Of a DNA stretch of 64,000 bases, positions 22,721 to 63,141 are shown piece after piece. Both the position numbers and the translations under genes were made by a program. The notes under the pieces were generated by a model. It ran no database searches. It saw only the letters and a program-made list of their open reading frames with translations, and was not told where the DNA came from. Within the stretch, counting starts at the first letter, position 1. Each line of letters opens with the position of its first letter. The DNA comes from Eledone cirrhosa (Eukaryota), in assembly GCA_964016885.1 (NCBI GenBank), contig OZ024755.1, forward strand, positions 20,212,001 to 20,276,000, in the 5' to 3' direction.

Positions 22721-22851
22721 TAGTACAGACTAAAAGGGTAAGCATTGAATTTCTGCTTTCACCCGAAGCGGGATCATCTGAAACAGTTTCAAGTGATCCG
22801 GCGCTTCGGGTGAAAGCAGACATTTATTGCTTAAACTTTTAATCTGTACTA
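22721..22851. repeat. imperfect inverted repeat (fold-back)
   Basis: Arms at 22721-22776 and 22794-22851 (TCTGCTTTCACCCGAAGCG / CGCTTCGGGTGAAAGCAGA) with a 17-nt loop. Confidence 0.85.
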
Positions 22852-22881
22852 CAACTACTACTACTTCTACCACCACTATTA

Positions 22882-23053
22882 ACAATTGTTTCTACTTTAG
22901 GCACAAGGCCAGCAATTACCCAGTGCATTACTGGTACTTTATTTTATCGACCCCGTAAGGATGAAAGGCAAAGTCAACCTCGGCGGGATTTGAACTCAGA
23001 TCGTAAAGGGACGTAACTATGCTGAAAAGCATGGCGTCCGACCCTCAACCAAT
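22882..23053 (-). mobile_element. SINE A
   Basis: Near full-length match. Confidence 0.9.
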
Positions 23054-24472
23054 ACACTATTAATAATGATAAATATATATATATATATATATATATATAT
23101 ATATATATATATATATATATATATATATGTGATCCAATGCTTGAGGTTCTTCATATATCGCTTGACTTGCTAGAATATGAGCCAAACAACCCATATATCA
23201 CATATTCCTGTCTTGAAGAAGCAGATAGTGAATAATGTAATTTAGAACTATTGTCTTAAAAAAACAAGACGTGTTGCCATGGATTGAACGCCTAGCACAA
23301 ACAGTAGTTTTCATAAGCGACCATCTACCACTAAACTGGAACAGCAAGTACAGCAAACATAATATTTTATGCGTTTCAGTTTCCGAATTATCGAAAAGAC
23401 AATATCGTTTGCAACTCTTAGATATGTTTATCATATATAAATATTCCATTCATAGAATTAGGTTAACTCAACTAAAATGTAATTATATAGTTGCTGTTCG
23501 AAAATGTTTATGTTTCAACAACAAATAATCTAGTTCAAACTTCATTTAAACACTAAGACAATTTCTGTTTCAGTTTTACTATAACTGAATTATTTCTACA
23601 TTGCCGTCTAATGTTTCTGAATATATGCAATACACTTTAAGATTATTTGAATATTTTTAAAGATTCAGAATTTTAATTATTTTCCTGCGGTGTTTTAGAG
23701 AAGAGAAGGTAAACTATAAACGTATCATGTGCTTATAGAAAACTAGTTTCACTGCTACACTTTCGTTAAATCGTGATGTAGGTACGTGTGTTTCATGAAA
23801 GCTTTCACGTAGAGTTAAATTAAATATAACATTAGAATATTATTTTGTACTTGAATATAAGTCAGATTGAATTCGTACAATTTCTACTAAACTCAAATTT
23901 AATTTACAATGAAAGAAAGGGTGGAATAGTACTTATCATTATAGAGAAGGAAACATATCAAGTTCTGAGAGCTGCCTAAAAATAATTTAGAAAAAAAATG
24001 AGAAAAAATATTTTCCGTGAAATATTTAGGTTTCAAAGTAATTTTGAGATAATTTAAACCAATAATTTGAGGAAATGGTACAGTAAAATTGTGGCTTCAG
24101 AATATATTTGTATGTAACAAAGAACATTTAGACAAACAATCAGAGATAATTCAATATTTCGAAAATAATAAAAATAATAATGGCTTCTTGAAATTAAATA
24201 TAATTAATACATTGCAAAGTAACGCACAATCACAGACAGACACACGCTTAAACACATGTATATACATAATATATATATATATATATATATATATATATAT
24301 ATATTAGAAAGTGAGGGTTTTTTACAAAATGAAAAATAACCGGTGTCCTACACGAGTGAAAGTATAAAGAAAAAAAGATGAAATCGAAAATGTAACTGGA
24401 GTCTATACATATATTTTATGCGTCTCAGTTTCCGAATTATCGAAAAGACAATACCGTTCGCAACTCTTAGAT

Positions 24473-26891
24473 ATGTATATGTATATATATATATATATGT
24501 ATATATATGTATATATATATATATATATATATATATGTATATATATATATATATATATATATATGTATATATATATATATATATATATATATATATATAT
24601 ATGTATATATATATATATATATATATATATGTATATATATATATATATATATATATATGTATATATATATATATATATATATATATATATATATATATGT
24701 ATATATATGTATATATATATATATGTATATATATTTATATATGTATATATATATATATGTATATATATTTATATATGTATATATATATATATGTATATAT
24801 ATTTATATATGTATATATATATATATATATATATATTTATATATATATATATATATATATATTTATATATATATATTTATATATATATATATATATATAT
24901 ATATATATATATATATATATTTATATATGTATATATATATATATATTTATATATGTATATATATTTATATGTATATATATATATATGTATATATATATAT
25001 ATGTATATATATATATATGTATATATATATATATGTATATATATATATATATATATATATATATATATATATATATGTATATATATATATATGTATATAT
25101 ATATATATATATATGTATATATATATATATGTATATATATATATATATATATATATATATATATGTATATATATATATATATATATGTATATATGTATAT
25201 ATATATATATATATATATATATATATATATATATATATATGTATATATGTATATATATATATATATATATATATATATGTATATATGTATATATATATAT
25301 ATATATGTATATATATATATATATGTATATATGTATATATGTATATATATATGTATATATATATATATATGTATATATGTATATATGTATATATATATGT
25401 ATATATATATATATATGTATATATGTATATATGTATATATATATGTATATATATATATATATATATATGTATATATGTATATATATATGTATATATATAT
25501 ATATATATATATGTATATATGTATATATATATGTATATATATATATATATATATATATATATATATATATATATATATGTATATATATATATATATATAT
25601 ATATATATGTATATATATATATATATATATATATATGTATATATATATATATATATGTATATATATATATATATATATATATATGTATATATATATATAT
25701 ATATATATATATATATATATATATATATATATATATATGTATATATATATATATATATGTATATATATATATATATATATGTATATATATATATATGTAT
25801 ATATATATATATATGTATATATATATATATATGTATATATATATATATATGTATATATATATGTATATATATATATATATGTATATATATATATATATGT
25901 ATATATATATATATATGTATATATATATATATATGTATATATATATATATGTATATATATATATATATGTATATATATATATATGTATATATATATATAT
26001 GTATATATATATGTATATGTATATATATATGTATATATATATATGTATATATATACATATATATATATACATATATATATATACATATATATATATACAT
26101 ATATATATATATATACATATATATATATACATATATGTATATATATATATATGTATATATATATGTATATATATATACATATATATACATATATATATAT
26201 ACATATATGTATATATATATATATGTATATATATATGTATATATACATATATATATATATATATATATACATATATGTATATATATATATATGTATATAT
26301 ATATGTATATATACATATATATATATATATATATACATATATATATATATATATATATATACATATATATATATATATATACATATATATATATATATAC
26401 ATATATATATATATATATACATATATATATATATATATACATATATATATATATATATATATATATATACATATATATATATATATACATATATATATAT
26501 ATATACATATATATATATATATATACATATATATATATACATATATACATATATATATATATATACATATATATATATATATATACATATATATATATAC
26601 ATATATATACATATATATATATATATACATATATATATACATATATATATATATATATACATATATATATATATATATACACATATATATATATATACAT
26701 ATATATATATATACATATATATATATATATATATATATATACATATATATACATATACATATATATATATATACATATATATATATATACATATATATAT
26801 ATATATATACATATATATATATATATATATATATATACATATATATATATATACATATATATACATATATATATATATATATATATATATA
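24473..26891. repeat. 2.4-kb (TA)n array with G interruptions on the left and C interruptions on the right
   Basis: Direct observation. Confidence 0.97.
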
Positions 26892-60997: not shown

Positions 60998-61835
60998 AGT
61001 CTATAGAATAATTCTTTCTGGGGTGAGGCTCCGTGTAGTGTTTGTGTTTGCTATTGTTAAGTACATTTGACCTCTACCATTATTTCGGTATTGTTGTTGG
61101 TGTTGTGGTAAGCTTATGAATTGCTGCTGCTGACAATTTAGAAGTATCTGTGTGTGTTTTTTCTTCATCCCTCCTGCCACCATCTCTCATAGTGGGGGGG
61201 GGGATTCTTCCATGTATATGAAGAAATATAAGGCAATAAATTAAGAAAACAGAAAATAAATAATAAATAGAGAATAAAGAATAAAGAATAAATGAAAAAT
61301 TGGTGAAAAAGTAATGAAAATGAATATGGAGAAGTGAAACATAAAATGAAGATTCAAATAAAGTAGGATAAAGTGTGTGTGTGCTATAACCAATCTCAAG
61401 GTCAGAAATATGTTGGATAGATTGGTATGAGGGACAAGATGTTAAAATAAGATAATCACACAAAATGTGTTTGTTATAATCAATCTCAACTTAAAAATAA
61501 ATATAAGGTGATACAGTGAAGAGAGAAGAAAACAAATAAATTAATAAAGAGAAATCAAGATTTAAAATTGGAACTTGAAAATCAGAAATCAAGTAAATTA
61601 AAATGTGTTTGTGTTATATAGATGTTGGCCAAATTATAATGGCTGTGTCCGATTCAATCTCCAGGCTATCATGGTGTCTGCTCGGCCTGGGTTGTTCCTT
61701 ATGGCTTGAGGGGAGTTCACAACCTAGGGTGTTTTGTTACTGCCCATATAGCTTGAGGGAGGTCTGGCCGAGAGGTGTTTACATGTTCTGTAGAAGTCCC
61801 TATAGCTTGAGGGGAGTTCTCATCTTTTTGTGTTG

Positions 61836-62971
61836 CTACTGTCCATATATCTTGAGGAAGGCTCTAAGGTGTCTGCATGTCCCGAAGAAGTCGGTTCTGA
61901 GGTTTATCAGGCCGCTTCCACCTCTTAGTATCTCGAGGGTCTCGTTCAGGCATAGTTTGCATATACAAGATCCCCCTTTATCGGGTGGTACTTTCCTGAT
62001 TATGTACCAGGCCAGAGAGTACGGGATCCTGTCCAGCTTAAGCTTCCAGATCAGGTCGGAGAGAGCCGTGCTTTTCCTTATGGCCTCCTTATTGAATAAA
62101 TGGCGATGGTTGTACCAGCGGTCTTTAAAGCTTGTTGATGTGGCTCCTATGTAGGGGTGTTCGGAGTTGGGGGTTTTAACCCTACTACCCTATACTAGGT
62201 TCTTCTTGAGGCATTCATTAACAAGGGGGCATGATTCGGGGTTTCTGCAGTTGCAGAGGGTGGTCGACCTCTGCGTGCCTATATTAGGGTTCCCGTTATG
62301 TGTTACATGTTGGTCTTCCCCCAGGCCCGGTGGGGAATCCCCGGGTCTGTTTGGGTTTCTTGTGTGGGCTCTGGGTACCCCTCCCCTCCTTTCACATGGT
62401 TCTGCTGAGTGCTTGTATTGCCATCTTCTGGTTGTGTGTGGTTTTTAAGCCTACTCCTGTTGATGGTAGATATGTGTTGGGCCAGGTTTCTCGTGGTGGA
62501 ATACGAGAGCTTCACAGTGTGTCTGTTGAAGATCCTGTGGTATCTATGGTCCCTCGGGAAGCATTTATCAAGTGCTCCAAAGAATAATCGGGCCAAGCTG
62601 TTCTTTAGGGCCGCTGAGTAGGGTGGATTGTACCACGTGATTTTTCGGTGTCTCCTCCTATATGTGTGGGTCGGGCGCGTCGTGATTTGTTGGAGGTTTG
62701 TTGGGTTGCTAGTGATTCCCGCACTGTTGCTTCCCCTTTGGGCGCTATGCTTTTTGTTATCTTCACGGCCCGAATCTGTGGGGTGGTCGTTGCCCGCGCT
62801 GGGAGATCTATCGTGGGGTGGTCCCCCGTTTCCCCCCTCCCTACGTGTCGTGCGGTTGGGGTCGTCGGTCTTGGGGTGGTTAGCGTCACCCCTGAGACTG
62901 CTACTCATATTGTGTTTCATCTCGTGGTTAAGCGTACTAGTCACCACCGCCCGTGAGGTGGTATCGGGCAC
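61836..62971 (-). pseudogene. PLE linker plus GIY-YIG endonuclease, disrupted
   Basis: RRRHRKITWYNPPYS...LDKCFPRDHRYHRIFNRHTVKLSYS, then a frameshift, then CNCRNPESCPLVNECLKKNLV*GSRVKTPNSEHPYIGATSTSFKDRWYNH...STALSDLIWKLK...CKLCLNE...INLRTDFFGTCRH. There is an in-frame TAG at 62190-62192 and the stop at 61836-61838. Confidence 0.9.
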
Positions 62972-63051
62972 ATGGTGCCTATTTGTTTCTGCTCTGCCTG
63001 TATTGCATTTTTGTTTTTAAAATGCAAAGTCAATAAATACACCAGGATTTT

Positions 63052-63112
63052 TTTCATTCTGATGATTGAAAGCAAAATTTTTTTGCTTTTAAGAAACCAA
63101 TGGTAAATGAAA
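63052..63112 (+). ncRNA. type I hammerhead ribozyme, intact
   Basis: TTTCATT-CTGATGA-TTGAAAGCAAAA(TTT)TTTTGCTTTTAA-GAAA-CCAATGG-TA-AATGAAA: a 7-bp stem I, a 12-bp stem II and a GUA cleavage triplet. Confidence 0.85.
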
Positions 63113-63141
63113 TAATTGCCTTATGTTGTTTATTACATAAC

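Follow-up and report, generated by a model that had tools for sequence, protein, structure and literature searches.

The window analysed here is a 64-kb stretch (64,000 nucleotides) of the genome of Eledone cirrhosa (genome size 3.0 Gb), in which short inverted-repeat, or fold-back, elements lie together with hammerhead ribozyme motifs and a truncated Penelope-like element (PLE). An initial annotation, made from the letters alone, had described about 11 fold-backs of several unrelated families as short non-autonomous ribozyme retroelements. Microsatellites account for approximately 14.5 kb of the window and swamped a repeat search in the unmasked sequence; self-BLAST was run after they had been masked. 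The masked window gave 18 local inverted matches, against 0-1 in each of 10 shuffles, with inverted repeats at 22726, 29379, 35230, 41704, 41876, 42769/43036, 43710, 52623/52788, 53379 and 56378. The features are given below, where family letters are labels of this analysis, a long end carries a tail, and a short end is tail-less and lies 45-105 nt upstream of the long end. UTR and GIY-YIG stand for untranslated region and the endonuclease (EN) domain, respectively.

22725-22847, unstranded: family E fold-back, the 3' end of Hydra-3; decayed hammerhead with a CAGATGA core on the minus arm; (TAG)n/(CTA)n flanks
29373-29489, minus: family B arm with the short (tail-less) end
29488-29658, plus: family B arm with the long end and a tail of about 60 nt; elsewhere the complete unit has 290 nt, a tRNA head and a tandem arrangement
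29708-29819, unstranded: family M fold-back, the 3' end of Hydra-4
35205-35334, minus: family D inverted arm; atypical CTGACGA...GAAA core at 35327
35346-35527, plus: family D arm with a Hydra-type tail
41426-41672, plus: Hydra-2 solo 3' end with tail; intact hammerhead at 41476-41540
41695-42171, unstranded: family J compound locus, made up of a fragment (41695-41733), an inverted arm (41822-41992) and a sense arm (41995-42171)
42222-42388, unstranded: Hydra-3 5'-to-5' join without a hairpin; UTR piece on the minus strand (42222-42346) and the last 42 nt of the tail on the plus strand
42760-43072, unstranded: 3' end of the Neptune-type family F, whose inverted arm measures 37 nt; both ends are of the short type, and the core at 42839 is an atypical CTGACGA
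43650-43922, unstranded: family C fold-back; minus-strand long arm at 43650-43800, followed from 43801 by the short arm on the plus strand; CTGATGA half-core only
52651-53255, unstranded: family K inverted pair, old and tRNA-headed; tRNA-like at 52792-52863 (minus)
53285-53551, minus: Hydra-2 3' end, long arm with a tail of about 85 nt; intact hammerhead at 53411-53475
53551-53752, plus: Hydra-2 3' end, short arm; intact hammerhead at 53648-53712
56378-56601, unstranded: second subfamily of family B, decayed fold-back
60492-63005, minus: Hydra-1 PLE, 5'-truncated and frameshifted; thumb, CNCRNPESC linker, GIY-YIG, long 3' UTR and tail; intact hammerhead at 60638-60692
63002-63141, plus: family G arm with the short end, joined to Hydra-1 5'-to-5' with 4 nt in common; intact hammerhead at 63052-63112

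Nine of the eleven fold-backs initially listed stood as separate elements. No self-BLAST match was obtained for a hairpin at 42298, which consists of two non-overlapping Hydra-3 pieces joined 5'-to-5', while the items at 41695 and 41822 shared an arm and formed a single compound locus of family J. The fold-back at 29708-29819 had been missed. Multiple families were indeed present, although 29373 and 56373 were related subfamilies of family B. The asymmetry of the arms was real and systematic across the fold-backs. Of the 11 listed elements, 10 had a (TA)4 motif no further than 25 nt away on one side or both, and four had it on both, which agreed with the reported proximity to (TA)n except at 22721, whose flanks were (TAG)n/(CTA)n.

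Six of the listed items (22721, 41695, 41822, 42298, 42765 and 53368) were ends of coding PLEs, originating from two Hydra-type families, one Neptune-type family and one more known from a single locus (family J). As their longer copies ran into open reading frames (ORFs) for reverse transcriptase (RT) and GIY-YIG, the description as short non-autonomous elements failed for these six. The remaining five (29373, 56373, 35230, 43703 and 52672) were non-coding, and three of them had tRNA heads. The other part of the earlier proposal, that the elements are products of PLE machinery rather than miniature inverted-repeat transposable elements (MITEs), held, with families such as E and M continuing into PLE ORFs, and its notion of solo inverted pseudo-long terminal repeats (pLTRs) fitted many of the listed elements.

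The PLE at 60.5-63.1 kb, presumed earlier to be the mobilizer, matched a 4.1-kb element, Hydra-1, for which an 894-aa ORF was found in L130 (L-numbers denote loci cut from the same genome). This ORF contained RMRWKA (RWK), ADKTNN (DKT), YRDD, a CNCRNPESC linker (CxCX5C) and, at its C-terminus, a GIY-YIG domain, without a CCHH motif. Published systems are compared here from extracts of the papers cited; in one of these, the Hydra clade, already reported in octopus, is defined by RWK and DKT motifs, a CxCX5C linker, the absence of CCHH and a C-terminal EN (PMC8557442). Because the motif set fits this definition, Hydra-1 was assigned to the Hydra clade; this and the other clade assignments (Hydra, Neptune) were made by motif reading. 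The same features characterize the Hydra-clade PLEs including Hydra-1_Obim of Octopus bimaculoides (Craig et al. 2021, PMC8557442), whose N-terminus also matched Hydra-1 in its motifs as judged by eye. Naiad was excluded by the C-terminal position of the EN. The Hydra-1 unit, brought to about 4.1 kb by its long 3' UTR and by an insert in the ORF, departs from the general Hydra trait of less than 3 kb, which is descriptive and not diagnostic. The element is thus a GIY-YIG PLE as proposed, but the window copy begins about 1.6 kb into the unit, is frameshifted and lacks the RT core, and cannot supply the RT. The partner type is mainly Hydra and not Neptune, in view of the CxCX5C linker and the lack of CCHH.

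ORFs lay upstream of the ends in families A, E, F, M and J. Family A (53368 and 41426-41672) corresponds to Hydra-2, whose long UTR led up into a second Hydra ORF, a 540-aa frame in L270 with a CNCRNKSNC linker that showed 53% and 39% identity to the Hydra-1 ORF over two blocks. Family E (22721), together with 42298, represents Hydra-3; the lineage of 22725-22847 was continuous with a GIY-YIG ORF, UTR and tail in L397/L399, so that family E was ruled out as a MITE or a non-autonomous family. Family M (29708) represents Hydra-4, based on one locus. For Hydra-3 and Hydra-4, just the EN end of the protein was read. Family F (42765) sits after a Neptune-type RT and EN (frames in L267/L268), and the Neptune features were a CTNRKCIIC linker with CTEGTC...H...H (CCHH) and a GIY-YIG at the C-terminus (L163-L167). 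Family J (41695/41822) followed a GIY-YIG C-terminus in one of five translated loci (L225). A thumb query gave 37,285 first-look candidates genome-wide, and a protein search found 896 relatives, mostly unnamed. Pfam analysis of five PLE proteins gave just one sub-threshold match to RVT_1 (1/5) and left the ORFs unclassified. When compared with the Hydra-clade PLEs of PMC8557442, which are mostly shorter than 3 kb with tails of 30-40 nt, at least four families were found here, including the 4.1-kb Hydra-1, with tails of 77-94 nt. The type I hammerhead at the 3' end, kept in Hydra-1 and Hydra-2, and the insertion into (TA)n are the same as in those PLEs (PMC8557442).

Families H, D and G and the Hydra-type ones had related ends (z 3.5-7.5, the top pairs of 78), and several Hydra-type tails had a common GAG(T/C)(G/A)CT hairpin motif, which may be a candidate protein-binding site. 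A similar tail motif was seen by eye in the printed end of the coral Hydra-2_Amil. Two further frames were also encountered: a 1240-aa open frame in L126 (G000:C1:134265500-134274500), an in-frame fusion of an L1/Tx1-like RT with the Hydra-1 ORF's C-terminal half, and a 537-aa frame (L272:2697-4307) for a further PLE-type RT with a DKG motif.

The anatomy of the ends was examined genome-wide in two sets. The unbiased set comprised 800 kb, namely 80 stretches of 10 kb chosen by position (round coordinates on 15 contigs and four stretches beside the window). The targeted loci were taken from the top 40 candidates scored per query (150 for protein), of which 7-30 were extracted, and are biased toward query-like copies. 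First-look candidates numbered 803 for B, 1921 for C, 1748 for D, 1251 for G, 1481 for F, 1071 for E, 969 for K and 1799 for J, and ten such families occupied about 6% of the 800-kb sample. The well-sampled families had two fixed 3' ends adjoining (TA)n and variable 5' ends. When ends were classified with a 10-nt tolerance around modes taken from the same data, 203 of 261 unbiased matches ended at the long or the short site; (TA)4 lay within 20 nt on the 3' side of 176 of these 203 and on the 5' side of 20, against a background of 3.5%.

The two ends were combined in a strict manner. Among 44 same-family 5'-5' junctions in the unbiased set, 38 joined a long to a short end, one joined two short ends, none joined two long ends and five were unresolved; the long+short combination thus made up 38/39 resolved pairs (p ~7e-11 against 50:50). 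Family M supplied most of the fold-backs in this set (20/44). The targeted loci (n = 225) gave 135 long+short and 2 short+short pairs, with 75 unresolved and 13 apparent long+long pairs. The latter were tandem B arrays, none of which ended long+long once followed through. Full-length Hydra-1 copies showed the same paired anatomy with kb-long arms. Hallmarks of EN-containing PLEs were present, namely a single ORF with PLE RT and GIY-YIG as read from motifs, 5' truncation, partial tandem pLTRs, an inverted 5' copy and a one-sided tail. An inverted 5'-truncated copy and a one-sided tail have been described for PLEs generally (PMC8557442).

This anatomy makes it extremely improbable that the fold-backs are MITEs, that is, derivatives of DNA transposons with terminal inverted repeats that insert at TA. 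Family E and some M pairs are nearly symmetric and of fixed length, as such elements would be, and TA flanks could hide a TA duplication, which is unreadable inside (TA)n. However, each arm is an inverted copy along its whole length and the inner junctions vary, one arm carries a fixed tail, and solo and tandem copies are common; long copies led to RT/GIY-YIG ORFs, which refutes this origin for families A, E, F and M.

The relative lengths of the arms bear on how the pairs arose. In 151 long+short pairs, the short arm reached more than 10 nt further toward the 5' end in 65 and the long arm in 20, whereas 66 differed by no more than 10 nt; this comparison used an earlier family library, in which short references push values toward zero. 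The short arms exceeded the long arms by up to 2.9 kb, indicating that the arms did not arise by simple copying of one from the other. The presence of a tail on one end and not on the other, with either arm being the longer, argues for two separate cDNAs and against a copied hairpin. Among 269 junctions, 97 overlapped by at least 2 nt, 87 were blunt and 85 had inserts. The two arms of a locus were more similar to one another than to the median other copy for Hydra-2 (30/30; divergence 2.3% against 6.4%), M (30/31), G (8/9), H (5/7), Hydra-1 (3/4) and C (4/7 with three ties), but not in B (1/10 with seven ties). Two clean 5'-5' fusions between families, with no TA in between, were found: the G arm on Hydra-1 in the window (L106) and an H arm on Hydra-1 (L107); for these two, independent insertion with loss of a TA tract is a possible alternative. 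A cross-subfamily pair was seen at L002.

We consider it probable, at roughly 0.7, that the fold-backs are head-to-head pairs of 5'-truncated PLE 3' ends in (TA)n, in which the two sides of a cut were filled separately from RNA. The PLE RT-endonuclease would cut a (TA)n tract and reverse-transcribe RNA from both sides, starting at the tail end on one side and at an internal site 45-105 nt upstream on the other. The two halves of an enzyme pair would each take a different start site, giving one cDNA on either side of the cut; these cDNAs would stall early, and their ends would be united by end joining. In most cases a single source locus would supply the RNA, and on occasion another family would contribute. 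Such a scheme is consistent with the work on Poseidon, where the purified PLE protein, a predicted dimer, nicks and extends both strands (PMC11167929). Poseidon PAc of Anolis likewise has two internal start sites bounding the tail and an AT-rich target, and hammerhead mutants still insert, the ribozyme being dispensable for insertion (Frangieh et al. 2024, PMC11167929).

Several points weigh against this scheme. PMC11167929 reported no strand difference in the start site of Poseidon PAc in vitro, whereas the genomic pairs here combine one of each site almost without exception. The closeness of arms within a locus also fits the copying of one molecule or later gene conversion. That the arms of 66 pairs have start points no more than 10 nt apart, in many cases at short palindromes, is as self-priming predicts, although short references inflate this number. 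Cross-family fusions were rare, with none among 44 unbiased and five among 230 targeted junctions, including the two clean ones. The window pairs 42765 and 22721 each have two short ends, the two-end pattern was not clear in families K and J, and the comparison of four contig sets over 52400-57200 found no contig spanning an empty site.

Self-priming itself, in which a single template snaps back at a palindrome and the endonuclease trims one end to leave a one-sided tail, is close to proposals in PMC3846280 and PMC8557442, but seems unlikely here. It would derive the strict long+short rule from a single molecule and would account for the high identity between arms, the junction overlaps, the nearly equal 5' ends and the palindromic junctions. 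A copy cannot outrun the 5' end of its template, yet the short arm did so in the 65 pairs mentioned above, and the cross-family and cross-subfamily arms are left unexplained.

Exactly five intact type I hammerhead cores were detected in the window by the type I descriptor (41476 plus, 53411 minus, 53648 plus, 60638 minus and 63052 plus), as initially reported. Only those at 53411 and 53648 fall in a listed fold-back (53368), so that the view of fold-backs carrying intact hammerheads applies to just one listed element. The unbiased 800 kb contained 90 hammerheads (19 in one tandem array), against 0, 0 and 0 in three shuffles and 0 also for two control cores; canonical hammerheads therefore occur about once per 9 kb, or ~3e5 times genome-wide by extrapolation. 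The stems differed between families with the pairing preserved, and the core with GAAA was kept in 116/131 copies of Hydra-2, 32/35 of Hydra-1, 26/26 of G, 17/25 of H and 18/26 of F. Hydra-3 had a CAGANGA core in 38/78 copies and the canonical CTGA in 1/78, the rest being truncated or decayed; six unbiased matches were CAGANGA hammerheads with full type I helices. Hydra-4 showed no canonical hammerhead in its last 290 nt. These two families differ from the statement that canonical hammerheads are universal in Hydra (PMC8557442). The five non-coding listed elements contained no intact canonical hammerhead, as B and K have no core, C has half of one and the helices of D are non-canonical, which disagrees with their description as ribozyme retroelements.

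The check by Rfam proposed earlier did not recover the ribozymes: at the gathering score, the hammerhead models gave no match in the window or in 14 loci, with only tRNA and U6 found, and an E-value scan of the window gave mostly miRNA noise among the best 150 of 388 rows. Single-sequence folding reproduced the hammerhead shape at 60638 and 63052 and part of it at 53411 and 53648, but did not do so at 41476, 22780, 35327 and 42839. The best explanation of these findings, from the sequence patterns, would be that hammerheads travel with PLE 3' ends as conserved passengers, with no need for them in fold-back formation. Short palindromic stem III and action as dimers are known for hammerheads, and in Schistosoma opposite-strand hammerhead pairs lie 100-700 bp apart, most motifs probably deriving from truncated PLEs (PMC4209133).

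The initial explanation, that the elements are mainly short non-autonomous hammerhead retroelements (retrozymes) replicating via ribozyme cleavage, is very unlikely on this evidence. Hammerheads are abundant and conserved, and real tandem arrays exist in the genome, comprising 19 hammerhead units with a period of about 468 nt in L370 (G000:C22:12000001-12010000), four units at about 550 nt in L317 and three at 310 nt in L351-L352; judged by their layout, these arrays would fit the definition of retrozymes better than anything in the window. Family G, with a hammerhead and no ORF in two 9-kb loci, and family D, short with a fixed 5' end and a hammerhead-like core, also conform to this view. Nevertheless, it is largely refuted for six of the eleven items, four of the five intact hammerheads in the window belong to the ends of ORF-bearing Hydra elements, families B, C, D and K lack a proper core as described above, and the top fold-back maker, family M, lacks a canonical hammerhead over the range examined. 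None of the listed elements was retrozyme-like in the sense of the tandem arrays. Non-LTR retrozymes are likewise short non-coding tandem units proposed to be PLE-dependent (PMC7229834, PMC7761336, bioRxiv 10.64898/2026.07.22.740005), but by definition they carry a hammerhead in every unit, whereas B and C are tandem without one and B has a tRNA head.

Family B (29373, 56373) was a 290-nt tandem unit with a tRNA head that scored 34-46 bits for Rfam RF00005, above the gathering score, and was called by ARAGORN in three of five loci. A- and B-box-like motifs were read by eye against the consensus. Head-to-tail continuation into the next unit was seen in 21/116 pieces, where a 48-nt leader precedes the tRNA and a T5 run immediately follows it; since this run stands right behind the tRNA, the mobile RNA of B would be a read-through transcript. 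B had two fixed 3' ends about 60 nt apart and overlapping inverted arms. Its terminal ends (n = 95) comprised 40 long, 28 short and 27 located elsewhere, and 77 adjoined TA. Neither a hammerhead core in B nor, in E-value Rfam scans of the B and M ends, any ribozyme family was detected.

The 5' ends of B were concentrated in the tRNA. In 25 loci retrieved by a query from the region 3' of the tRNA, 37 copies were present, of which 35 were measurable. Among these, 25 began within positions 58-71 of the tRNA, the 46 nt upstream of A58 contained no start, three copies began further up, and seven entered the previous unit. No pile-up of 5' ends was seen in loci from a tRNA-spanning query, a set selected for read-through. 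RNase Z cutting was rejected, as the ends fall inside positions 58-71 and not after 73. The nucleotide A58 of tRNAs is subject to methylation to 1-methyladenosine (m1A58), which is the basis for reading these ends as stalls, and the cDNAs of B likely stalled there. A stable T arm and local CATG/GTAC palindromes are alternatives; yet solo copies start there too. In the second subfamily of B, one full copy carries T in place of A58.

An ordinary RNA polymerase III-transcribed tRNA-derived short interspersed element (SINE) moved by a long interspersed element (LINE), with the inversions made by LINE twin priming, is a quite unlikely origin for B and K. The tRNA head and the box-like motifs are those of such a SINE, and K has no fixed ends. 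LINE twin priming yields non-overlapping inverted segments. B instead shows overlapping inverted arms, two fixed 3' ends and head-to-tail units with the leader and the T5 run, and the single LINE-type 3' end and monomeric insertion were not found in it.

Somewhat short of an even chance, but possible, is that B is a 'PLE-SINE', a ribozyme-free element whose tRNA fold replaces the hammerhead as an RNase P-like cutting signal in tandem read-through RNA and whose m1A58 stops the PLE RT; the long+short rule and the cross-family arms would then record an asymmetric enzyme dimer that uses two RNAs to fill the (TA)n break on both sides. PLE-type ends are also seen in the non-coding families B, C, D and G, which likely use PLE machinery in trans. 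B and Hydra-4 had in common a 52-nt stretch, located in each of them slightly upstream of the short end (z 3.5, 0/100 shuffles, 78 pairs tested), which hints weakly that Hydra-4 may be the specific partner of B; that the link of B to a specific PLE consists of this one similarity weighs against the scheme.

The Schistosoma SINE-like repeats SM-alpha and Sj-alpha, whose promoter is tRNA-derived, are among the closest known systems. They are likewise promoter-bearing tandem units but with an active hammerhead, and the PLE-type two-end, inverted anatomy is not mentioned in the description used (PMC6765202). Non-autonomous Chlamys elements such as MRC1 are non-coding PLE dependants with pLTRs, head-to-tail copies and a partner-like 3' end; they occur in green algae, and the description used has no tRNA head (PMC8557442). 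The TRIMp3 elements Helenus, Ajax and Cassandra are small-RNA-headed, non-autonomous and outside the LINE system likewise, but are of the LTR type with a primer-binding site and polypurine tract (PMC10886601).

Family C (43703) was a non-coding tandem unit of about 510 nt, head-to-tail in 7/78 pieces, in which CTGATGA was not followed by GAAA. Family D (35230), about 285 nt and non-coding, had an identical 5' start in 11/11 copies with the anchor motif and in most of 40 matches, and none of 47 pieces was tandem; its core was atypical with non-canonical helices. In family G, the intact hammerhead stood behind more than 2 kb of simple-repeat-rich sequence, and no PLE protein match or ORF was found in two 9-kb loci. 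An apparent tandem unit of G was actually a nested fold-back. The region upstream of G (L265:3640-8270, L266) was a non-coding simple-repeat mosaic that includes pieces resembling the ends of other families, and L265:6400-7200 held a further large fold-back family between TA tracts. Family K (52672) was old and tRNA-headed.

The system is real, occurs throughout the genome and is at its core PLE biology of a known kind: the inverted copies, tails, (TA)n targeting and hammerheads are already published traits. What appears to be new is the long+short rule, together with the cross-family arms, the CAGANGA core and family B with its tRNA head. Literature searches, with subscription journals and Repbase/Dfam entries outside their reach, found no tRNA-headed PLE dependant; among the matches listed, they gave nothing on twin priming in PLEs, octopus hammerheads or the U4A core, and nothing relevant on m1A58 truncation in the best 20 of 1,036 matches. 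The origin of PLE inverted repeats and one-sided tails is called undefined in PMC8557442. An asymmetric dimer together with a PLE-SINE, if true, would explain the inverted pLTR and the tail of PLEs, and a tRNA-headed PLE dependant, if true, would extend the concept of SINEs to partners other than LINEs. To date, a single PLE has been assayed in vitro; the long+short rule, the arm lengths differing in both directions and the cross-family fusions give sharp predictions for such an assay, for which intact young Hydra ORFs exist in this genome. For annotation, both the PLE proteins and the ribozymes are missed by the gathering scores of Pfam and Rfam.

A near-full U6 snRNA copy (105 bits) was found at L014:440-543 (G000:C2 near 210236300), inverted and 5'-to-5' against a family M fold-back, and was possibly captured by PLE machinery. 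Within the window, F, M, C and D are also represented by solo pieces at 54150-54327, 44131-44169, 11968-12059 and 27558-27649, and another repeated family was located beside TA tracts at 53815-54062 and 27121-27382, with a CTGATGA motif at 53972 (minus). An abundant SINE-like repeat at 22487-23052, 37989-38301 and 4342-5792 forms inverted pairs and a 180-nt tandem, and one inverted pair of it brackets the fold-back at 22721. The (TA)n/(ACAT)n tracts of 0.9-4.3 kb are situated at 24471-26891, 44992-49324, 58747-60491 and 63142-64000, two of them flanking the Hydra-1 insertion. At 19732-19805, a tRNA gene or tRNA-like sequence (55.5 bits) resembles tRNA-Asn(GUU).

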